A DNA stretch of 64,000 nucleotides, from sequence record OZ346187.1, one strand, 5' to 3'. Made by a program: the position numbers and the translations under genes. Position 1 is the first letter of the stretch, and every line of letters starts with the position of its first letter. This document shows positions 7,401-61,974 of the stretch, piece after piece. The notes under the pieces were generated by a model that searched no databases, was not told the origin of the DNA, and saw only the letters and a program-made list of their open reading frames with translations. Source of the DNA: a phage.

Positions 7401-7880
7401 TATTGCGTTACCGTCCCTTCTGGAGCAATCATTGTGAGAAGGAATGGTAAAGTGGCAGTGTGCGGTAACTGTAATAACGCCAAAGCTTACTCTTCTGTAG
7501 CAGGCAAGGAGATTTCCCGTAACGATGGTAAACCTATCACGTATGGGGTTATGTATGGGGCACAAAAAGATAAAGTTGCAGATATGCTGGACATCTCCCC
7601 AGAGTTGGGACAAAGGGTAATCGATGCACTCTGGGATGCCAACCCAGGTCTTAAGGGGCGCAAAGAGGATCTGGAGAAATTCTGGGAAGCAACAGGTAAG
7701 AAGTTTATCTACTCTTTTGATGGTCATGCTATCTGGACCCGATCTAAACACTCTTTACTTAATGCATACCAACAAAATGGCGGTGCATCGTTGTGTGACT
7801 TAGTTGGAATACTCATGCACCACCAGATGGTGAAGCGTGGGTGGTACGATGAAGGTGTTCGTCGTATTATTTATTACCAT
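4488..7880 (+). CDS. DNA polymerase, family A (T7 gp5-like), exon 1, containing an intein
   Basis: N-terminal FDFEASGL...YHCG exonuclease motif; motif A-like IDGSNLEQL; motif B-like RNDGKPITYGVMYGAQ; ORF stop at 7884-7886 is assigned to the intron. Confidence 0.8.
6501..7469 (+). mobile_element. intein with LAGLIDADG-type homing endonuclease, in-frame between polymerase motifs A and B
   Basis: Starts CYSGDTQILTEKG (intein block A); two LAGLIDADG-like motifs (LLIAIHDDGHL, FIASLSNWDGWV); ends ...VAVCGN followed by Cys at 7470; 969 nt, frame preserved. Confidence 0.65.
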
Positions 7881-8132
7881 AAATAACATTGTGGCTTCAT
7901 AGAGTAATCTATGTCGAATAACCTCTTTAACTGCGGGAAGCCTAAACCTTATGGCAAGGTAATCCGCAACGAAGCGCTCAAAAGAGCGAACGCTCAGAGG
8001 CCATTCCGAAAGGAAGTAGACCAGCAAGTGCGGTCGAAATGGGAGGATTCCTGTGGTTGCTTATCATAGGAATATGAGATGGTCCGATCCTACGTGAAAA
8101 CGTATGGCTATGCACGTAATGGTGCGGGGTAG
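7881..8132 (+). mobile_element. ORF-less group I intron in the DNA polymerase gene
   Basis: P-like CTGCGGGAAGCC and Q-like AATCCGCAACG elements; exon ends in U (7880) that can pair with GUGG 11 nt downstream (P1); ACGU-GAAA-ACGU hairpin near 3' end; last nt G (8132); joining 7880 to 8133 keeps frame. Confidence 0.55.
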
Positions 8133-15685: not shown

Positions 15686-15931
15686 ATGAACAAAGGGTGG
15701 ACATTTGTAGACGGCGTTGAAAACATGCCTCTAGGAAAGTATATTGTAGCCATGGCAGATGAGAATGGCAAGGTTGATTTCGGAGCTTGCGAGGTTGTTC
15801 TTGCAGGATCTGGTGACTATGCTCACAAAACTGGGATAATTAACGGTCATTTCTACTTTGATTACAACCCTGTTGTGGCGTATATGGCTATGCCAGAGTT
15901 CGAGCTCCCAAAGGAGGGTGCGGATGTTTAA
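15686..15931 (+). CDS. hypothetical protein
   Basis: 81-aa ORF after GCAGGAGA RBS. Confidence 0.4.
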   Translation: MNKGWTFVDGVENMPLGKYIVAMADENGKVDFGACEVVLAGSGDYAHKTGIINGHFYFDYNPVVAYMAMPEFELPKEGADV

Positions 15932-16121
15932 GCTTAAATCTGCATGGAACATCGCTGTGGGGGACGAGATCCGCATCCCAGGTGGAAAGACCATTATGAA
16001 GATATCTCGTATCGAGTACGAAGGTGATCGTGTATTTCATATCTTTGCAGAAGATGGTCGAGAAATTTATATACAGGCAGGCTCTCACATCTATATTCGT
16101 AAGAAAGGGGACGACAAATGA
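15924..16121 (+). CDS. hypothetical protein
   Basis: ORF track 15858-16121; ATG at 15924 after AAGGAGGG. Confidence 0.35.
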   Translation: MFKLKSAWNIAVGDEIRIPGGKTIMKISRIEYEGDRVFHIFAEDGREIYIQAGSHIYIRKKGDDK

Positions 16122-16447
16122 CAGAGATCATCATTTCAACTGCAGGGTATGTGTTCCTGACAATCATTGCACTGACCATTTTGGTGGTGGTATATGGAAT
16201 TGTTATTCTCCCTATTCTTGAGACAATTAGTTTGTGTCGGTGTTGGAGAAAGGCTTACGGTCCACAGCCGTGGAAGGACTGGCCCCACCTGGTGCACATA
16301 GCGTTCTCTTATGCTTATGATCACGCCAGCAGTGCATGCATAACCGGGTATCACGCCCACAACTGGAGCTGGGAAGGGTTGAGGAAATGGAATGTTACAA
16401 AGACCATACCTCTGCGCATGTACAAACCTAAAAACAAAGACAGCTGA
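16118..16447 (+). CDS. small membrane protein
   Basis: N-terminal hydrophobic stretch YVFLTIIALTILVVVYGIVILPIL; last plus-strand gene before the junction. Confidence 0.4.
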   Translation: MTEIIISTAGYVFLTIIALTILVVVYGIVILPILETISLCRCWRKAYGPQPWKDWPHLVHIAFSYAYDHASSACITGYHAHNWSWEGLRKWNVTKTIPLRMYKPKNKDS

Positions 16448-16758
16448 TACTTGAAAATCCCTGGCATATCAAGTGTAAGGAGGATTTCTAAAATGGATTT
16501 CCTCCTTTTGATATTTCACCGGGCCAGATATTTTAAAATTCTTAGAAAATCAGGTCTTTGAAATGAAAAACAGATCGAGTACCGAAAGAGGATGTACAAA
16601 TTTTCTGATAATAATGGACTTATTGTTATAAAAGGTCAGAGGTAAGCTGGGAAAGTTCTGGTAGAAGGGTGAGAGTATGTGCGGAAAAATCTGGAATAGT
16701 GACTTAAAGTACGGTGCGAACGATAAGGAATTGAGCAGCACATCTTATCGTGCCTGTA

Positions 16759-17149
16759 TTTTGTGTGGATGAATGAGAATACCTATCATTGTGAGAACCA
16801 TTATCATTACGGGCAATTTAACAGTACCGATTATGCGCACCACTGGCGATACATACAGGGATTGATAACATGGGTTACTGTTTACGCACATAACAATTGT
16901 ATTTCTTACTATTTGTGTGGGCGTTTAGACGTTGACGGTCAGAAGTCTGCAGGTTAATATCTAATCTATTGGCTGCTAACTATATCCCACACAAATAGTA
17001 AGAAATACAATTGTTATGTGCGTAAACAGTAACCCATGTTATCAATCCCTGTATGCATGCCAGTGGTGCGCATAATGGGTATTATGTTAAATTGCCCGTA
17101 ATGATAATGGTTCTCACAATGATAGGTATTCTCATTCATCCACACAAAA
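16759..17149. repeat. large imperfect inverted repeat (two ~163-bp arms, 16759-16921 and 16986-17149, 64-bp spacer)
   Basis: Right arm is the reverse complement of the left with a few substitutions; mirror ORFs 16763-16957(+) and 17014-17205(-) give the same peptide; spacer holds TTGACG, 17 bp, TAATAT. Confidence 0.85.
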
Positions 17150-17379
17150 TAGATTGCAAATGTTGTGCCACTGTGTGAACGGCCTGGCCTATTAATTTGC
17201 CTCACTGCCTTGATATTTGAGAATTATTATAAGAATGAGAAGTATTCCCATTTCGTCCGCCTGGCAGCACTCCTGTAGGTCCTGCAAGGACTCTAGCTGA
17301 AAGCTAGACCCTTCGGGCCTCCCTGCAGGTCAGGTCAAAATCGTGGTAGAATTGGGCCTGTTCAGATATTTCTGGCTGA

Positions 17380-18590
17380 CTCTTCAGGTCTGTGTGGGAA
17401 AAGCCAACCTCTCCGGCGGGGCATGGGGTCATGACGGGAAAATTGCAGGTCAATTAAAAAATTTACGTGGTGTATGAAGCGCTCTTCAGGTAAGGCAGGT
17501 ATTATGGGATGAAACCCTCTTCAGGCAATGATATTTGTGGGTGTGATATTTGCTGGAAAGCCAGATATGACGGGACTCCCGGCGGGGCAGGGGTAGTACA
17601 GACAGGGAAAATATGGAGGATGTGGTTGGGTAAATTGATCAGGCAGGTAGAGTATGGAATATGTTACAGGTATGTTAAATAGGGAGGCTGAATATCTGTA
17701 GGATTTGTGTGTAAAATCAAAGACTTAAGTGGTGTTGTGGTATTTTCTATAAATAATTCAAGTTTAATAGGTAATATTTGTCTCTATTCGCTTTGTGTGG
17801 TAAACAGATTCAGATGAGATTGGTTTACAAGTGTATACATAATATACAAATTAAAGATACAAGAAACCCCCCTCCCCCTTCGGCTACCATTCACCTTTTC
17901 CTCTGACTGGTACTTAAACACTTATTCAGACTCTTCAGGTTATCACCCATATATCATATGGCAGTGACTGGTGTCCTCCGGCCCCTCTTTCGTCACCCGT
18001 CCGCTTCGCCATGCTAATGCCATAGCCAATGGTTCGGTTGTTCACCCTGTTCACTCAGGTGTATCTCCATACCCCTTCAAACCGAAGAGAACAGAAAACC
18101 CGAATTACTCGGTAAAAGAAAAGAGAAGAACTTAATTTTATCAGGATAGGCAAGAATGTCAAGGCATGACTGCTCACTAAACAAGCAAACAGTCATGTGT
18201 GGAAGGTAAGTGATTGTGGTGGTAGGAAATTTAGTTGAAAGATGTGTTATAGGTGCTTCCAGCACTTTAGCCGGGCAGCTAATTGTGTGTCAGTCCAGCG
18301 GTTCATCCTCTACTTCACTGAAATCAATGTTCATGGTCTCTTCCCAACCATCGATCTCAGCACAAGAGTGGAGTTCTTTAGGGTTTACTCCCAAAGCCTC
18401 AGCAACAGAGTCTATATTTAACACCTCTGGCAGGTATGATTCATCGAATTCAAGGTAAATCAGGCCACGAGTGTTGTCAGCTCCACCAAATATCTCTATC
18501 TTCATGAAATCTCCTCTGGAAATGAGAGTGTGAACAGGGTTTTATACGTTCTAATGCACAGGAATTATACACGTTTGCCTCTTCAGGCCA
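17380..18590. repeat. repeat-rich non-coding junction with recurring CTCTTCAGG 9-mer
   Basis: CTCTTCAGG at ~17380, 17482, 17516, 17931, 18579; related blocks CCGGCGGGGCA(T/G)GGGT at 17412 and 17578 and GGCAGGTA at 17493 and 17643; several short hairpins. Confidence 0.6.
18290..18505 (-). CDS. small acidic protein
   Basis: 71 aa, strongly acidic (D/E-rich); RBS-like AGAGGAGA upstream. Confidence 0.4.
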   Translation of the reverse strand: MKIEIFGGADNTRGLIYLEFDESYLPEVLNIDSVAEALGVNPKELHSCAEIDGWEETMNIDFSEVEDEPLD

Positions 18591-18626
18591 TGCTTTAGCA
18601 TGAGGAACCTGTGTGGGCTCGGTGCT

Positions 18627-18839
18627 TCATAGTCTACCACCTCTGAACTCTTCGTGCTCAGGCATAATAGAGAACCAGATATCTACGATGTCCTCCCACG
18701 TCAGGTCATCAGCCTCAGGATCTGTCTGGGACGAAGATGAAGAGTCCTCAGAATCTAAGTTTTCCTCTTTAACTGGCTCATCCAAGGGACATATGGTCAC
18801 TCCTTCGGATGTCTCTTCAGATGCATGTGTGTTGATCAT
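18627..18839 (-). CDS. small acidic protein
   Basis: 70 aa, very acidic with a poly-Ser stretch. Confidence 0.35.
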   Translation of the reverse strand: MINTHASEETSEGVTICPLDEPVKEENLDSEDSSSSSQTDPEADDLTWEDIVDIWFSIMPEHEEFRGGRL

Positions 18840-19199
18840 GTTCCCCCCGTGAGTATTCCGGCAACAGCCGCTATGGAAGTAATGATCATCAGGATCACCA
18901 CTAAAACTTCAGACAATGTTCTCATTGTGTATTCCATATTCTCCAAACTGTGTGTGGATACTATCACGGGAGCGGTAATGTGTCAACAGCAACGCCGCGA
19001 GGGTTTGGTTAAAATCCGAGCGTATGGTGATTTGGGTCAAAACGGACGTGCGTTCTCGCTACGCTCGAAATATGGAGTTGTTTGTAGGGAGCTCTTAAAC
19101 GCTCTGTAATGAGATTAACTGCCCAAGGTATGCAATCGTGCACCAGATAAAGAAAAGGACGCCACAGAGCGTCCTAGGTGTCTTAAATTTGATATTTTG

Positions 19200-57693: not shown

Positions 57694-58248
57694 ATGAAAT
57701 ACTTTGTAACAAGCGACACACACTTTCTCCACCAGCGGGTCATGGAGTTTGATTCATGTCAAAAACACAGATCTCAGTATGATCACAATCTTGACAGTAT
57801 GAATGCGGGAATCATCACCAAGTGGAACTCTGTTGTGTCACCTGCAGACACTGTGTTCCACTTGGGAGATATTGCATGCACTAATGATAAGAATATCAAC
57901 AAATTGCTCCCAGATATTCTAAATATGTTGAACGGACATATTATTCTTGTTCGTGGCAACCATGACACAAGGACGACTGTCAAAATTATGAAAGAGTTCG
58001 GTCATGAGGTTGTAGATTATTACGAGCTTCGCCACAACAAGAATTTGATCTGTATGAGCCATTACCAGTTTGCAAAGTGGAACAGAAAGCCTCACGGATC
58101 AGTCCAACTGTTCGGTCATGCTCACGGAACCACACAACAGTTGTTTGGCAGGCAGCTTGATGTCGGTTGGGATGTGTGGGGGAGACTCTTACCATTAGAA
58201 GAGGCATACCGTATTGCAATGAGTTTTGATATTGACAGCAGGGAGTAA
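57694..58248 (+). CDS. calcineurin-like metallophosphoesterase
   Basis: SDTHF, GDI, GNHD metallophosphatase motifs; ATG at 57694 after GAGGAA; ORF track 57589-58248. Confidence 0.6.
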   Translation: MKYFVTSDTHFLHQRVMEFDSCQKHRSQYDHNLDSMNAGIITKWNSVVSPADTVFHLGDIACTNDKNINKLLPDILNMLNGHIILVRGNHDTRTTVKIMKEFGHEVVDYYELRHNKNLICMSHYQFAKWNRKPHGSVQLFGHAHGTTQQLFGRQLDVGWDVWGRLLPLEEAYRIAMSFDIDSRE

Positions 58249-58295
58249 TCCCTGCTATTTTAAAGAAAATTGCCACACAAGGAGAATCAGGAGAT

Positions 58296-58646
58296 ATGAA
58301 AGATGGGGATAAGCTGCTATATCTTAAAGTCCCCCTTGAAATACTATCTATGTCAAAAGTTTTGAATGACACAACTGGGGAGGTTGTTGTTCTTGACTTG
58401 TATGACAAGATCGTATACTGCTACCTGCACAACTGGTATAAGCTTGGAGGAAATTCACGCTTCACACCAAGCACAAGGAAAATTGCAGCAGATGTTGGGA
58501 TAAAGAAAACAAAAGCAGCAGCGTGCGTTAAAACTTTAGAATGTGCAGGAGTGGTTGAAACATCCACACAAGGGAGAGGTAAAAGATGCACATTTTCCAA
58601 AGTTTTGCCACCAGAAGAAGTTATTCGGATGTCAACAACTGGTTAG
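58296..58646 (+). CDS. hypothetical protein, possibly DNA-binding
   Basis: 116-aa ORF directly upstream of the iteron-like repeats. Confidence 0.35.
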   Translation: MKDGDKLLYLKVPLEILSMSKVLNDTTGEVVVLDLYDKIVYCYLHNWYKLGGNSRFTPSTRKIAADVGIKKTKAAACVKTLECAGVVETSTQGRGKRCTFSKVLPPEEVIRMSTTG

Positions 58647-58717
58647 ACCAGTAAAAACTTAAATATCTGTACTATAAGGATTCGTATGTTTTATGTTCGC
58701 CATGGAACGGATACTAT

Positions 58718-58783
58718 TAACTGTCCGTGATACGGACACATCTGCCCGTAATACGGACACTAACTGTCCGTGATACGGACACA
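58718..58783. repeat. three tandem ~21-bp iteron-like repeats, each an inverted repeat
   Basis: TAACTGTCCGTGATACGGACACA at 58718 and 58761 (identical) and TCTGCCCGTAATACGGACAC between; each is GTCCGT-N3-ACGGAC; followed by an AT-rich segment with GGTACTAAGTAC / CTAAGTACC palindromes (58790-58920). Confidence 0.8.
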
Positions 58784-58920
58784 TAAAGAATATAACTAAA
58801 ATAACTAAATAATAAAAAATAAAAGATCTAGTACTTATGGTACTAAGTACATATACTTAACTTATGTAGAATATACTAGATCCTAAGTACCATGTTTTAA
58901 ATTTATTACTTACTATGGGC

Positions 58921-59170
58921 AGTGTCGGCCCTTCATTGGCACTCGCCTACGAGGGGCGAGATGCCGGGCCTCCTTGGTGCACACAATAACAGAAGTTCAT
59001 ACATGCAGGTCTGTTAACATGTGTGGGAGCGAAGCGATAGCGCAGGCCAAAGGCCGAGCACTGATGTGGGCCACCGACGAAAGCTTGCCAGCGCCGTAAG
59101 GAGTCGGTTGAGAGTCTCCCGCACGAGCTTGGATGAAGTTTATGTGTGGAAACTGACAAGAAGGCCCCTA
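58921..59170 (+). ncRNA. candidate structured non-coding RNA (unclassified)
   Basis: ~250 bp GC-rich block in AT-rich surroundings; several hairpins (CTCGCC-TACGAGG-GGCGAG, GGCC-AAA-GGCC); only a weak overlapping minus-strand ORF. Confidence 0.25.
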
Positions 59171-59285
59171 AATCGCTCCACAGCTATATAAACTATACCA
59201 GGTAATGCAATCGCACCAGTTTGATAGAAAAGCTCGTTACAAAGCGATACAGTGAGTTTTTCTATAACTTGAAGAGGAGGCAGCT

Positions 59286-59864
59286 ATGGGTTCACGCAAA
59301 GATGACCGTGAAAAGATTGCAAAACGTTATCAGAATGAAGAACAGATGGAGAAAACTTTCAAGTGGAAGCCAGGTTTCCAGCGTAATCATTCTAACGCTC
59401 GTGATCGTAAGCATCCGGATAAGTGGTTAACACCGCCAAATGATGGCATGCAGGTTGGGGATGAGAAGGAGCTGTCACCTGGAAAAGATGGCAACTACAT
59501 TCGCACTAAGGAAGCAGGTCCAAAGGATGACAGCTATCTTGTAGATAAGGTTCTTGACGGTGTTGATGTAGGTGTTGACACTGTACGAAACCTTTTTCTT
59601 GGTTGGTATCGCACAGGGTTTTTCGACATCAAGGCTATTCGTCGTGTTTGTGATATTAAAAAGTCTGCCTACGATGATGATTCCCTACATCGCACTCTGA
59701 GACAATACTCAGAGAGGTACGGTCATCCAGTTATCACTCTTGACGATATTAACGAAGTTATGTATCATGTAGAGGTTGTTGCAGGTAGGTTCGGTGATGC
59801 ATATCTCGGTATTCTTTCTGCAAAGGATGAGGTAATGTTAAATAAGATTTACTATGAACGCTGA
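59286..59864 (+). CDS. hypothetical protein
   Basis: 192-aa ORF after AGGAGG RBS. Confidence 0.5.
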   Translation: MGSRKDDREKIAKRYQNEEQMEKTFKWKPGFQRNHSNARDRKHPDKWLTPPNDGMQVGDEKELSPGKDGNYIRTKEAGPKDDSYLVDKVLDGVDVGVDTVRNLFLGWYRTGFFDIKAIRRVCDIKKSAYDDDSLHRTLRQYSERYGHPVITLDDINEVMYHVEVVAGRFGDAYLGILSAKDEVMLNKIYYER

Positions 59865-59874
59865 GGGGCGATTA

Positions 59875-60063
59875 ATGAACAATCCGGTAGCAAAGAACTG
59901 TAATAAATTCAACAAGTCTGCGATTCACACTGACAGGAAAAAGAGTTGGTTTCCTGACATTGACGAGGAGCTTGAGAGTTACTTTGAAGATTTAGTCACC
60001 AATGCAGATGAGGTTGCGATTAAAGAATACGCAGACAGGAGGGATAAGGCCGGAATCTGTTGA
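59875..60063 (+). CDS. hypothetical protein
   Basis: ORF track 59854-60063; ATG at 59875. Confidence 0.35.
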   Translation: MNNPVAKNCNKFNKSAIHTDRKKSWFPDIDEELESYFEDLVTNADEVAIKEYADRRDKAGIC

Positions 60064-60088
60064 CAAAAATAATGTTACCTGATAAGAT
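60060..60088 (+). promoter_or_regulatory. sigma70-type promoter
   Basis: TTGACA, 17-bp spacer, TAAGAT. Confidence 0.5.
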
Positions 60089-60139
60089 CTGCAATATGAT
60101 GTGATACAATTTTAACTTACGAGGTCTACAGGTAATGCT

Positions 60140-60382
60140 ATGTTTAAGGTTAAGCTCGTTTTTCGTTCCATGAATGAGGATTATTTAGAAGATGAAGGTG
60201 AATTTCGTGCACTGGATGATGCAATAGATTTTGCCAACGACTTAGCTTGTATGAATACGGGTTATGGGCTATGCTGTTGGGATGGTGGTGTTCAGATCGG
60301 TGATAGCAAGATCTTCTACTTCTACCCTGAGCCTGATAACAAACAAATTAAGTATGTTTTATTTATTTGTGCTTTACAATGA
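60140..60382 (+). CDS. hypothetical protein
   Basis: 80-aa ORF downstream of promoter. Confidence 0.4.
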   Translation: MFKVKLVFRSMNEDYLEDEGEFRALDDAIDFANDLACMNTGYGLCCWDGGVQIGDSKIFYFYPEPDNKQIKYVLFICALQ

Positions 60383-60669
60383 GGTTGTTTTCGTGTATCA
60401 TGATGAATATCCAATTTAAAGATGAATTTGATGGCTTTATCTCCGGATGCTTTGAAACAGGGTTCGGAGAAGGCTGAGTTCCCCTTAGAGGGCTTGATAG
60501 TGCACCACACTTAAAATGGTAGGGGCAGCCAGCACATGACGATGTGACCCCAGCCAACCTGTAATAAGGTCGAGCCAAAGTGCGGTAATGGGCTCTGGTA
60601 ACCCACTTGTTGGGTCTTGCTGGTCCAGGACGCTGGACAAGTCGCAGGGAATACCACCCTGCGGCGAAC

Positions 60670-60698
60670 TTGACAATCAGTATTTGCTATGATAAAAT
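60670..60698 (+). promoter_or_regulatory. sigma70-type promoter
   Basis: TTGACA, 17-bp spacer, TAAAAT. Confidence 0.5.
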
Positions 60699-60726
60699 CC
60701 ACCTATCACGTGATAATGGAGGAAAC

Positions 60727-61065
60727 ATGGCGGATACAACTAAAAAGCGTCGCCGTAGAGGCAGACCTCTGAAAGAGGAGTCCAACGCCATTCAGCTAGA
60801 GAAGAACATCCTTGATATGAAGGAATCTTTTATAGCGATGGTTCCAGAAGCTCACAAAGTTTTAAGAGAGCTGATGTTGGACCCGAAAACCAAACAAAAT
60901 ATTCGTCAAAGCATTGCAGAGTATGTTCTTGATAAGGCAGACCGAATGCAGGAAGAATATGATGAGATGTTTGGTGAAGAGGAAGAGGTGGTAGTGGAAG
61001 AGGCTGAAAAACCAGCACCTTTTATGCCATTTACTACAGAAATACAGCCTGTTAGCAATAGCTAA
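60727..61065 (+). CDS. AT-hook-containing small acidic protein
   Basis: ATG at 60727 after GGAGGAAAC; N-terminal KKRRRRGRPLK (AT-hook-like RGRP); acidic C-terminus; ORF track 60607-61065. Confidence 0.4.
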   Translation: MADTTKKRRRRGRPLKEESNAIQLEKNILDMKESFIAMVPEAHKVLRELMLDPKTKQNIRQSIAEYVLDKADRMQEEYDEMFGEEEEVVVEEAEKPAPFMPFTTEIQPVSNS

Positions 61066-61074
61066 AATATTTTC

Positions 61075-61103
61075 TTGACAAACTTTGCTTAACAGTGTAA
61101 TAT
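61075..61103 (+). promoter_or_regulatory. sigma70-type promoter upstream of tRNA cluster
   Basis: TTGACA, 17-bp spacer, TAATAT. Confidence 0.5.
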
Positions 61104-61162
61104 TGTAAACATGGTCTCCCACCTTTTCTGGCGGCTAAGGTGTAAAAGAAAGCCACCCAGTG

Positions 61163-61237
61163 CCCTGTTAGCTTAGTGGATAAAGCAGCGGCCTTCTAAG
61201 CCGTTGACACTGGTTCGAGTCCAGTACGGGGTGCCAA
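61163..61237 (+). tRNA. tRNA-Arg (anticodon TCT)
   Basis: Hand-folded cloverleaf: acceptor GCCCTGT/ACGGGGT (with G.U pairs), anticodon loop CTTCTAA, T-loop GGTTCGAGTCC, CCA encoded. Confidence 0.65.
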
Positions 61238-61241
61238 ATTG

Positions 61242-61327
61242 GGGAGTTATCCCGTAGAGGTAGCGGTGTAGACTGTAAATCTATTGTCATTGCGACTCGG
61301 GTGGTTCGACTCCACCACTCCCCACCA
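61242..61327 (+). tRNA. tRNA-Tyr (anticodon GTA), long variable arm
   Basis: Acceptor GGGGAGT/ACTCCCC, anticodon loop CTGTAAA, T-arm GGTGG-TTCGACT-CCACC, CCA encoded. Confidence 0.65.
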
Positions 61328-61441
61328 AATTTATATTTTTAGATGCATAAATAATACAGATAATGGCATTGATATTTATCGTCGTTTATACTAGTCACTA
61401 ACTGCTCGAAAATCAGTGTCATTATCAGTATAATTTATAAA

Positions 61442-61532
61442 GGAGGGTAGGGAGCAATGGTGCTCAAGCGGTCTTGAAAACCGTCCCGTTGAGGATGACT
61501 CGATGATGGTTCGATTCCATTACTCTCCGCCA
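61442..61532 (+). tRNA. tRNA-Ser (anticodon TGA), long variable arm
   Basis: Acceptor GGAGGGT/ACTCTCC, D-stem GAGC/GCTC, anticodon loop CTTGAAA, T-loop GGTTCGATTCC, CCA encoded. Confidence 0.6.
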
Positions 61533-61630
61533 CATTGTTGACCTTGTAATTAAGCGAAAGCCGGAAGCAGAACCGGATTATCAAATGTTACAGTCGTCAT
61601 CGCCGACTAGCAACATGGTCAACATACTGA

Positions 61631-61729
61631 GCTAGGTAAGCCCTTTGGCAAGGGCGAGGATTTTTAATCCTGAAAATAGACGAGGTAGTCGTTGAATACA
61701 TAGGTGGTTCGATTCCATCACCTAGCACC
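61631..61729 (+). tRNA. atypical tRNA-like gene (~99 nt), anticodon ambiguous (most consistent with TTT)
   Basis: Perfect 7-bp acceptor GCTAGGT/ACCTAGC, D-arm GCCC-TTTGGCAA-GGGC, T-arm GGTGG-TTCGATT-CCATC; anticodon stem imperfect with loop TTTTTAA; ~29-nt extra region before the T-arm; 3' end ACC then T (CCA not fully encoded). Confidence 0.35.
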
Positions 61730-61734
61730 TTTTT

Positions 61735-61810
61735 GCTGATGTAGCACAATCGGTAGTGCAATTGATTTGTAATCAATAGGTTGTAGGTTCAAGTCCTGCC
61801 ATCAGCACCA
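61735..61810 (+). tRNA. tRNA-Thr (anticodon TGT)
   Basis: Acceptor GCTGATG/CATCAGC, D-arm GCAC-AATCGGTA-GTGC, anticodon stem ATTGA/TCAAT with loop TTTGTAA, CCA encoded. Confidence 0.7.
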
Positions 61811-61811
61811 A

Positions 61812-61886
61812 GGCCCTGTAGCTGGAAGGTTCAAGCAAGCGACTCATAATCGCCAGACGGTGGTTCAATTCCACCCAGGGCCACCA
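61812..61886 (+). tRNA. tRNA-Met (anticodon CAT; initiator, elongator or Ile-lysidine type not resolved)
   Basis: Acceptor GGCCCTG/CAGGGCC, anticodon loop CTCATAA, T-arm GGTGG-TTCAATT-CCACC, CCA encoded. Confidence 0.65.
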
Positions 61887-61897
61887 AATAGTAAATA

Positions 61898-61974
61898 CTC
61901 CGCGTAGCTCAGCTTGGTAGAGCGCCTGATTTGGGATCAGGAGGTCGAGTGTTCGAATCACTCCGTGGAGACCA
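61898..61974 (+). tRNA. tRNA-Pro (anticodon TGG)
   Basis: Acceptor CTCCGCG/CGTGGAG, D-arm GCTC-AGCTTGGTA-GAGC, anticodon stem CCTGA/TCAGG with loop TTTGGGA, T-arm GAGTG-TTCGAAT-CACTC, CCA encoded. Confidence 0.7.

Follow-up and report, generated by a model that had tools for sequence, protein, structure and literature searches.

A G + C-rich non-coding block of rV5-like phages as a candidate structured RNA beside a putative replication origin, with homologs in satellite-like Escherichia coli plasmids

Introduction

Positions 58,921–59,170 of a 64,000-nt stretch of the phage sequence record OZ346187.1 (hereafter the window) form a G + C-rich block between two genes, for which an earlier note, made from the sequence alone, had suggested a possible non-coding RNA. 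The question raised by this locus is whether the block encodes small proteins or acts as a folded nucleic acid and, in the latter case, whether it acts as RNA or as DNA and to what end. In the analysis presented here, the block was found not to be protein-coding. It is best read as a structured non-coding RNA module of about 200–300 nt on the plus strand, which would belong to a replicon-control region and lie beside a likely origin of replication.

The closest record to the region of the block is Escherichia phage nomine (99.6% identity). In BLAST searches, the region matched 119 records of the genus Vequintavirus, the rV5-like virulent myoviruses of E. coli, at 88–99.6% identity. Eighteen GenBank records titled 'Campylobacter phage' (MG0656xx) are also more than 88% identical to this region of the rV5-like E. 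coli phages, and their naming looks doubtful. Phages of the rV5 type have a wide therapeutic and biocontrol use and are part of the BASEL collection. Their origin, regulatory RNAs and any satellites are so far uncharacterised, and the block provides a concrete candidate for an origin or control element.

Composition and extent of the block

The block is located in a 640-nt gap between two plus-strand genes, namely a helix-turn-helix (HTH) gene of 116 amino acids (aa) and orf192. This gap was left unannotated in most records, and small open reading frames (ORFs) were called there in rV5 and in BASEL-collection phages. The G + C content of positions 58921–59170 is 0.564, compared to 0.431 for the window, and the block is the sole cluster of 250-nt segments with a G + C content of at least 0.55 (fraction as G + C-rich: 0.0002). 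The segment of elevated G + C content described earlier is indeed the top 250 nt of the 64 kb in this respect. The conserved element slightly exceeds the limits given for it: it begins at about 58923, its core extends to 59124 and a variable 3′ extension reaches about 59215.

Helices and covariation

Hairpins were predicted in the block. Compared to shuffled sequences, the fold energy of 296 nt yielded z = −2.6 for the plus strand and −1.9 for the minus strand, and that of a 210-nt core z = −1.2 to −1.6, folded as RNA or as DNA. Since stability alone is not beyond chance for G + C-rich DNA, the structure rests on covariation. The several stable hairpins that the earlier note had described are present; their stability as such goes only weakly beyond that of shuffled sequences, and the helices are established by covariation.

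Covariation was compared across the 119 Vequintavirus genomes, one divergent metagenomic phage (IMGVR_UViG_3300010279_000001, hereafter the IMGVR phage) and circular E. coli elements of about 13.5 kb, which are described below as putative satellites. This comparison with relatives, also proposed in the earlier note, revealed five double compensatory changes, three in helix P4 and two in helix P1, plus several G-U transitions (helices are listed in Table 1). Compensatory double substitutions are the generic criterion for a structured RNA, and both P1 and P4 display them.

Helix P1 was 100% paired in five distinct sequences, compared to 36–48% when the partners were slid. Both of its double changes were found in satellite L013 and lead from G-C to U-A. 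With only five sequences available, 30 of 500 partner shuffles equalled the observed value. Helix P4 was 100% paired as well, with both sides altered in three of its six pairs, from ACCGAC/GUCGGU in the phages to GCUGCC/GGCAGC in satellites. Despite the changed stem, the P4 loop GAAAGCUUGCCAGCGCCGKAAGGA, with one position being G or U, is identical in phages and type-A satellites. The type-B satellites (L025, L031, L032 and L034) have an 8-bp helix GUCCGGAU/AUCCGGAC at the place of P4, with an unrelated loop.

P-core closes the core domain, which is the best conserved part of the block and common to phages and satellites. All changes observed in P-core preserve the pairing (U-A in place of U-G in this window, G-U in place of G-C in the divergent phage, and G-U in place of A-U). 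Two of its nine pairs are conserved U-G pairs (G-T in DNA), and the helix is kept in type-B satellites with one to five G-U pairs in the predicted duplexes. In the core, 94.3% of the cells were paired, compared to 36–42% with slid partners. The covariation score of the core was 0.179 against 0.087 in shuffles, with none of 500 shuffles reaching 0.179, in an alignment (A8) that was fitted to the covariance model. A custom covariance model of the core (R1), built to search for copies, found a single copy in each phage and each type-A satellite (88–133 bits) and none elsewhere in the window, a gene-free gap of 2.5 kb (see below) included. Among the phages, varying columns amounted to 10% in P1, 12.5% in the core, 25.6% in the flanking coding sequence and 51% in the 3′ extension.

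Helix P2 is variable. Its tip is lost by an 18-nt deletion in rV5 and Murica, in which an 8-bp helix CACACAUG/CAUGUGUG remains. Satellites have a P2-like hairpin closed by ACCCACA/UGUGGGU or CCACACA/UGUGU-GG, with an unrelated inner sequence. Positions 59021–59025 belong both to the 3′ strand of P2 and to the 5′ strand of P-core, which makes the two helices mutually exclusive. The second GUGUGG, in the 3′ extension, could pair with the 3′ strand of P-core, and the GUGUGG copies downstream could form further alternative helices. In satellites L016 and L017, GUGUGGG is located 4 nt 3′ of CCCGCGC.

Other pairings were tried and rejected. A small GCG/CGC hairpin in the core is destroyed in Murica, a CAC/GUG pairing in the core is broken in the IMGVR phage and a helix of the minimum-free-energy (MFE) structure closing the core with 59174–59179 is not conserved. 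A common fold for the core interior was also dropped; the single-sequence MFE structures disagree among lineages.

CCUCC(U/A)U, a sequence similar to the 3′ end of 16S rRNA, occurs in the RNA of the block, and the region of the P4 loop contains the Shine-Dalgarno-like UAAGGAG. GGGAG and CUCCC are present in addition (sites 58966–58975, 59025–59029, 59097–59103 and 59116–59120), and the four GGAG/CUCC segments are complementary to one another, so that several alternative pairings are conceivable.

Table 1 Features of the block and its surroundings in the window
Feature	Position	Strand	Details
Winged-helix DNA-binding protein, 116 aa	58296..58646	+	Pfam HTH_36 (E = 2.3e-5), DUF6945; PHROG families
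Iteron/operator array	58718..58784		three 17-bp perfect palindromes TGTCCGTGATACGGACA at 58722-58738, 58743-58759 and 58765-58781; spacing 21-22 bp
AT-rich stretch, candidate DNA-unwinding element or non-consensus promoter region	58785..58910		G + C content 0.198
Helix P1, 15-bp bulged hairpin	58927..58970	+	outer GGCCC/GGGCC; inner GGCACUCGCC/GGCGAG-A-UGCC; loop 58948-58954
Helix P2, variable hairpin	58980..59025	+	closed by CACACA/UGUGUG; inner stem AACAG/CUGUU
P-core, closes core domain	59021..59124	+	59021-59029 GUGUGGGAG pairs with 59116-59124 CUCCCGCAC
Helix P4, 6 bp	59073..59108	+	ACCGAC/GUCGGU, 59073-59078 with 59103-59108; 24-nt loop GAAAGCUUGCCAGCGCCGUAAGGA at 59079-59102
Variable 3′ extension	59125..59215	+	second GUGUGG 59144-59149; motif GGCCCCUAAAU 59163-59173 common to satellites
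Invariant 12-bp hairpin	59224..59265	+	AUAGAAAAGCUC/GAGUUUUUCUAU; inverted-repeat search; just 5′ of the ribosome-binding site of the next gene
orf192, 192-aa protein of unknown function	59286..59864	+	phrog_12226, no Pfam family; first downstream gene

Coding potential

The longest ORF overlapping the block is a minus-strand frame of 70 aa (58947–59159). The earlier note had taken a weak minus-strand frame for the only overlapping ORF, which holds for its strand and rank; shorter ORFs of 31, 41 and 56 aa on the plus strand and of 36 aa on the minus strand are also present. Small proteins have been annotated here in some GenBank records, with 56 aa in rV5 (ORF78) and with 31 and 56 aa in BASEL-collection phages, and the presence of these frames on both strands speaks for the view that the block encodes them. 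In a codon-position test with 12 aligned phage sequences, the variable columns at the three codon positions numbered 25/26/31 in the block in any frame, compared to 36/23/89 in the adjacent 192-aa gene used as control, so the excess of third-position substitutions is absent from the block. Most substitutions alter the amino acid, as in the 56-aa ORF, which shows mostly replacements. In the divergent IMGVR phage, this ORF is interrupted by a stop and the 31-aa ORF by a frameshift, and most relatives have stop codons within the minus-strand 70-aa ORF. No candidate ORF in the block was kept as a reading frame across the phage relatives, stops or frameshifts occurring in each, and the frames are not maintained in the satellite homologs either. 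A conserved coding frame among homologs, named in the earlier note as the finding that would speak against a non-coding RNA, was thus looked for and none is kept. Given the codon-position counts and the frame disruptions seen in many relatives, the IMGVR phage among them, the small-protein reading was rejected, and we consider it hardly credible. The block is not protein-coding.

Search for known RNAs, promoters and terminators

When the whole window was compared with Rfam 15 (4227 covariance models, gathering threshold), only tRNAs and one group I intron were found, all outside the block. At E ≤ 10 for positions 58650–59300, the best match was rli43 with 22.5 bits against a cut-off of 100, mostly over the AT-rich region. 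Three satellites gave no match at E ≤ 0.1. ARAGORN detected no tRNA or tmRNA in 58900–59300, and found seven tRNA genes at 61162–61974. With 7–9 bp, P-core is acceptor-like in length; P-core and P4 do not form an acceptor/T-arm stack, because eight unpaired bases separate them. The lack of a tRNA or tmRNA match, formerly noted on inspection, was borne out by ARAGORN and Rfam, and the covariance-model scan suggested at the time returned no Rfam family for the block. The block belongs to no known RNA family, but would instead represent a new structured-RNA family with testable helices.

No sigma-70-type site was found on either strand of 58650–59300 in a scan that is blind to phage-specific promoters, and no terminator-like site was found in 58200–61200. 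The heptamer TAGATCC, which is common to the upstream regions of phage and satellites, was dropped as a phage-specific promoter signal, as it is not enriched in the window. The hairpin upstream of orf192 is kept even in the IMGVR phage, where the changes are one-sided and compatible with pairing. It is not a terminator, since no U tract follows the stem.

Strand and chemical nature

The conserved U-G pairs and the G-U intermediates of P-core place the structure on the plus strand. C(UUCG)G tetraloops are present in hairpin modules of the satellites, and no terminator was found between the flanking genes. RNA is favoured over DNA because of the G-U pairs, the UUCG tetraloops and the plus-strand flanking genes without a terminator. 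C-GAA-G triloops (GCGAAGC) occur in the phage and in satellite L025. The C-GAA-G triloop is a classic, very stable DNA mini-hairpin and has been reported at some origins. Taken together, the block is likely to be RNA in nature, and we consider it probable that it is a functional structured RNA. Of the possible non-coding RNA proposed earlier, the non-coding, conserved and structured character and the absence from known families thus stand, and RNA is favoured over a DNA signal.

Initiator-like gene, iterons and AT-rich stretch

The same order was observed in every lineage: a winged-helix initiator-like gene is followed by palindromic iterons, an AT-rich stretch and the block. This context of iterons, initiator-like gene and satellite homologs had been missed in the earlier note. 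Records of relatives list the 116-aa protein as 'transcriptional regulator' or 'replication initiation protein'. The protein reaches 24.5 bits against HTH_36, which is just under the Pfam cut-off of 25, and matches the PHROG replication-initiation families phrog_12838, 8102, 428 and 270. A direct similarity between this phage protein and the Rep-like protein of the satellites was considered and was not significant.

Most Vequintavirus genomes have four iterons. Three are present in this window, in nomine and in CarlMeissner, in which a 21-nt unit is missing (alignment A1). The G + C content of the AT-rich stretch falls in the lowest 0.03% of the 126-nt segments in the 64 kb. The stretch is invariant in the genus, and a different AT-rich stretch takes its place in the IMGVR phage and in the satellites. 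Its description as promoter-like holds for the base composition; a sigma-70 consensus promoter did not appear in the scan, and the stretch looks more like the unwinding region of an iteron origin or an operator array than a promoter.

The proteins flanking the block in the IMGVR phage are 83–96% identical to those of this phage. The block is kept and everything upstream of it is replaced, the winged-helix gene being only 28% identical and the iterons being different (GATACATATTTGCATCAGAT type). Besides the block, this phage retains the kinase and phosphoesterase genes and the genes downstream. Each satellite lineage has its own repeat array (e.g. ACCTGTTGGAATTTCCCACAGGT or CCGGTAAATTTTACCGG), which an AT-rich stretch and the block follow. 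Initiator-like gene and iterons behave as an exchangeable specificity cassette, with the block as the constant part.

The architecture of a lambda-like iteron origin, with at least three repeats adjoining an AT-rich region, is present, while binding of an initiator is putative. The cumulative GC skew is lowest at about 57–58 kb, at the divergent switch of transcription, and highest at about 18 kb. The minimum is compatible with an origin near the block, and gene orientation explains it too. The neighbouring genes are early and nucleic-acid-metabolism genes (RNA ligase, kinase and phosphoesterase). Homologs of the 192-aa protein were found in Vequintavirus only.

Distribution

Homologs of the block were searched for by BLAST against phages, plasmids and E. 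coli genomes and by pattern scans of IMG/VR, metagenome contigs and GTDB. None was found in the other Vequintavirinae genera examined. At the syntenic loci of Mydovirus, Seunavirus and phage Antha there is no homolog, no equivalent gap and no match to the model. The IMG/VR pattern scans yielded no homolog beyond the one divergent phage, and the scan of GTDB species-representative genomes yielded none. A match in a high-G + C actinophage and one in Tateyamaria were rejected as chance matches, as was the unrelated high-G + C metagenome contig L020. In the BLAST search of E. coli genomes and plasmids, the sole homologs outside phages are located on circular E. coli 'plasmids' of about 13.2–13.9 kb. 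Judged by these searches, the block is confined to Vequintavirus and its putative satellites.

Satellite-like E. coli plasmids

The satellite-like plasmids comprise NZ_CP020521.1, NZ_CP178698, NZ_CP035869.1, CP148565 and CP134895.1, and NZ_CP043822 was assembled as a trimer of the ~13.5-kb element. Two metagenome contigs also carry it. The loci are numbered L013–L018, L021, L025 and L031–L035. Genes of these elements encode a major head protein, a Dit-like distal tail protein, a Neck1/tail-completion protein and small HTH proteins. In addition, they encode a tape-measure protein of 706 aa, for which the phage matches of best coverage are Vequintavirus tape measures (25% identity), and a Rep-like winged-helix protein of about 290–303 aa with weak matches to HTH_36 and phrog_428/391. 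No terminase, portal or integrase and no primase, helicase or polymerase gene is annotated in them. A set of 5.8 billion proteins contained only 18 clusters of relatives of the capsid protein, each with an identity of at least 82%. E. coli is the source wherever one is named, and nearly all are located on contigs of 13.4–14.3 kb. Based on gene content, the ~13.5-kb elements look like an undescribed plasmid-borne family of satellites of rV5-like phages. No paper on these elements or on satellites of rV5-like phages was found in the literature.

The block of the satellites sits at the equivalent place, ahead of the rep operon. Between P2 and the core, the satellites have 0–3 extra hairpin modules, each ending in UGUGUGGG, and with these modular insertions the element measures 200–450 nt. 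Phage and satellites encode unrelated proteins downstream of the block. Apart from the block, no sizeable DNA homology was found between the satellites and the 64 kb of phage sequence compared. Since the satellite RNA is separated from the rep operon by a sigma-70-like promoter of the operon's own, it is not simply a rep leader.

The rep promoter of the satellites (TTGACA ... TGATAAGAT; L025:2040-2120, L031:2070-2130) closely resembles a phage early promoter at 60060–60088 (TTGACA-17-TAAGAT, with TGATAAGAT), which suggests that phage and satellites may share promoter signals.

The block provides a direct sequence link from the phages to ~13.5-kb E. coli plasmids with genes for a capsid protein, a distal tail protein, a tape measure and a Rep-like protein. 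Satellites exploiting virulent phages, if these plasmids are such, could affect the outcome of phage therapy and would widen the known ways in which a helper is recognised.

Proposed role and rival explanations

As a plus-strand RNA module, the block would be part of an early polycistronic transcript, immediately 3′ of a lambda-type origin/operator cassette, and would exert its effect on the replicon-control region in cis. The folded RNA would arise by transcription across the AT-rich stretch, and its alternative helices may gate the formation of a primer or R-loop, or the read-through into the downstream operon, in a mode likened to ColE1 RNA II or the T4 oriF transcript. The P4 loop would be the docking site for a trans-acting factor of phage or host. 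Satellites with an unchanged loop would be switched on along with their helper, and type-B satellites would answer to a different partner. To the coupling with an origin in particular we give somewhat less than an even chance. A further step would be a 'handshake' between phage and satellite, in which the P4 loop of an origin-coupled riboregulator is read by a helper-encoded factor and replication and expression of the satellite are switched on only on infection by the matching helper. We regard this as doubtful. If true, loop types A and B would correspond to helper-satellite specificity groups, the block would be a new class of replicon-control RNA and virulent E. coli myoviruses of this group would have their first satellite system.

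Several observations weigh against the reading as an origin-associated RNA module. The fold energy is barely better than that of shuffled sequences, the covariation stems from few independent lineages, namely the genus, one divergent phage and satellites with two core types, and no structure of the core interior between P-core and P4 is common to the lineages. Without a consensus promoter 5′ and a terminator 3′ of the block, the ends of the RNA are not marked. The GCGAAGC triloops suit a single-stranded-DNA origin signal equally well. We infer the replication origin from architecture; with only 116 aa, the winged-helix protein is rather short for this role and might instead bind an operator array as a repressor. 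The rep operon of the satellites is preceded by its own sigma-70-like promoter, located 3′ of the RNA. Finally, no paper on non-coding RNAs of rV5 was found in the literature.

Ranked by likelihood, the rival explanations are a leader element, a priming signal in single-stranded DNA, a trans-acting RNA, a packaging site and, last, the small proteins dealt with above. A leader riboregulator of the downstream operon could be an antitermination element of the kind of HK022 put or lambda nut, or an RNA immunity of the phage P4 CI/P1 c4 type. GUGUGGG repeats and the complementary CCCGCRC/CCCACA would pair alternately and so set the read-through, the palindromes would be operators for the winged-helix protein, and the rep and structural operon of the satellites would respond to the helper. 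In line with this, the block heads long same-strand strings of genes in phage and satellites, the exclusive helices P2 and P-core are followed by downstream GUGUGG copies (as in L016 and L017), the palindromes with their regular spacing resemble lambda-type operators and the sequence-conserved P4 loop suits a nut-like site for a protein. Phage P4 offers the precedent of a satellite with an RNA immunity encoded in the leader of its replication operon. Against this stand the lack of a terminator-like site downstream and of any match to C4/CI or other leader families of Rfam, the satellites' own strong promoter ahead of rep and the unrelated downstream proteins of phage and satellite. The leader explanation is on the unlikely side in our view. 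An element acting at the DNA level appears less probable still. Here, the plus strand displaced on melting of the AT-rich region would fold into a single-strand initiation (ssi) or primosome-loading signal for the phage primase-helicase, similar to RSF1010 ssiA/ssiB or G4-type priming sites, and the satellites would have copied the signal in order to use the helper replisome. The position directly beside iterons and AT-rich stretch, the pairing of a constant block with swappable initiator and iteron cassettes, the satellites' lack of an annotated primase, helicase or polymerase, the C-GAA-G triloops and the absence of a promoter or terminator are all in line with this, and compensatory changes would preserve DNA hairpins as well as RNA ones. 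The G-T pairs implied in P-core (2 of 9) and in the type-B duplexes (1–5) would be weak in DNA, however, UUCG tetraloops are a feature of RNA, a size of 200–450 nt with modular insertions is far above that of known ssi signals and it is not obvious what mutually exclusive helices would do in a signal of this kind.

Quite improbable, in turn, is a stable non-coding RNA cut from the early transcript that acts in trans through the P4 loop as decoy, sponge or regulator and was acquired by the satellites for the same purpose. The conserved loop sequence displayed on a covarying helix is suggestive of this, as are the Shine-Dalgarno-like UAAGGAG of the loop, the anti-Shine-Dalgarno-like CCUCC of the RNA and the second structured block that follows 1.3 kb downstream, with the tRNA cluster after it; stable RNAs adjoin the tRNA genes of T4. 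The search for RNA targets complementary to the P4 loop in the window and one satellite gave no outlier and no convincing target, though, no processing signal, tRNA-like end or terminator was found, and the constant position after iterons and AT-rich stretch is left unexplained. Very unlikely is a headful packaging (pac) site copied by terminase-less satellites. A pac site is usually located in or beside the small terminase gene, whereas the block lies among early genes and beside an initiator-like gene. Helix-preserving changes and the tolerance of G-U pairs are unexpected for a double-stranded protein-binding site, and type-B satellites lack the conserved loop. In support of such a site, the satellites have no annotated terminase, the TGTGTGG motif is repeated and the homology of the block is the only sizeable one in the 64 kb examined, beyond which others may exist. 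Packaging by the headful mechanism, with circularly permuted genomes, has been reported for rV5-like phages (PMC8407724, PMC13211470).

Further features of the window

A second G + C-rich unannotated block is located at 60440–60670 on the plus strand, between orf80 and a TTGACA-17-TAAAAT promoter, and is 93% identical in the IMGVR phage. Two double compensatory changes were observed in it (GGUCCAG..CUGGACC to GGCUCAG..CUGAGCC, and UCUCCGGA/UUCGGAGA to UCUCUGGA/UUCAGAGA). Without a match in Rfam, it is a second candidate for a structured RNA.

A gene-free gap of about 2.5 kb (~15790–18290) lies at a convergent junction. It is dense in hairpins, is unannotated in nomine (record 90501–93006) and gave nothing credible in Rfam. 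A perfect 22-bp inverted repeat spans 16900–17011. Short stretches of the gap match non-coding DNA of satellites exactly or nearly so: positions 17211–17235 match a promoter-like 25-mer of four satellites, and positions 18252–18271 match a hairpin module of L025 in 20 of 20 bases. The heptamer TGTGTGG occurs 33 times in the window, compared to 9.4 expected occurrences, a number reached in none of 100 shuffles. It is concentrated in non-coding DNA, with clusters at 16762–18957 and 58130–59149, where it forms the closing helices of hairpins together with its complement and marks the ends of hairpin modules.

A tRNA-like gene at 61631–61729 has an odd anticodon loop, with a 4-base anticodon 'atcc' according to ARAGORN and 35.5 bits against the Rfam tRNA model; it is annotated in the records as either tRNA-OTHER or tRNA-Lys. 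The group I intron (RF00028, 64.7 bits) is located at 7871–8106 on the plus strand.

Comparison with known systems

ROOL and GOLLD are phage-borne structured RNAs of unknown function that are often found near tRNA genes, and the block is comparable to them in these respects. It differs in having no Rfam match, in its smaller size, in its restriction to a single genus and in its link to an iteron cassette. With HK022 put and lambda nut, the block would have in common that a structured RNA acts in cis near the start of an early operon and exposes loops able to dock a factor. These sites measure 15–70 nt, however, share no sequence similarity with the block and differ from it in that no terminator was found downstream of the block.

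The RSF1010 signals ssiA and ssiB and those of the G4 type are likewise hairpins beside iterons and an AT-rich region, in which both structure and specific bases matter and which are recognised by a replicon-specific priming enzyme. They are, in contrast, single-stranded DNA of about 40–130 nt, while the block is larger and contains many G-U pairs and UUCG loops.

The CI RNA of phage P4 and the c4 RNA of phages P1 and P7 resemble the block as structured RNAs in the replication-operon leader of a plasmid-capable satellite, with short repeats complementary to another segment of the same transcript. The block has neither a match to this family (Rfam C4) nor the tRNA-like end of the RNase P type, and it is much larger. 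Moreover, the helper phage carries a homolog in the present case, which P2 as the helper of P4 is not known to do.

ColE1 RNA II and the T4 oriF/oriG transcripts are long structured transcripts at an origin, with a coupling of transcription and initiation as proposed here for the block, and the activity of RNA II is decided by alternative helices, as would be the case in the block. The block shows no sequence or Rfam similarity to these RNAs. Compared to ColE1, no antisense promoter for a partner of the RNA I type and no dedicated upstream promoter was found (sigma-70 scan of 58650–59300), and ColE1 is without the iterons and the initiator-like protein that the origin cassette beside the block has.

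The lambda-type origin, with the O protein and four dyad iterons, differs in that the phage protein here has only 116 aa and the iterons lie outside its gene; the origin is read here from architecture. A conserved 250-nt structured block is not known beside the origin of lambda. The likenesses concern the whole cassette. Three to five partial palindromes of 17–24 bp with a spacing of 21–24 bp are followed by an AT-rich region, the adjoining winged-helix gene matches PHROG replication-initiator families (the Rep of the satellites being weakly 'O-like'), and protein and repeats are swapped together between relatives.

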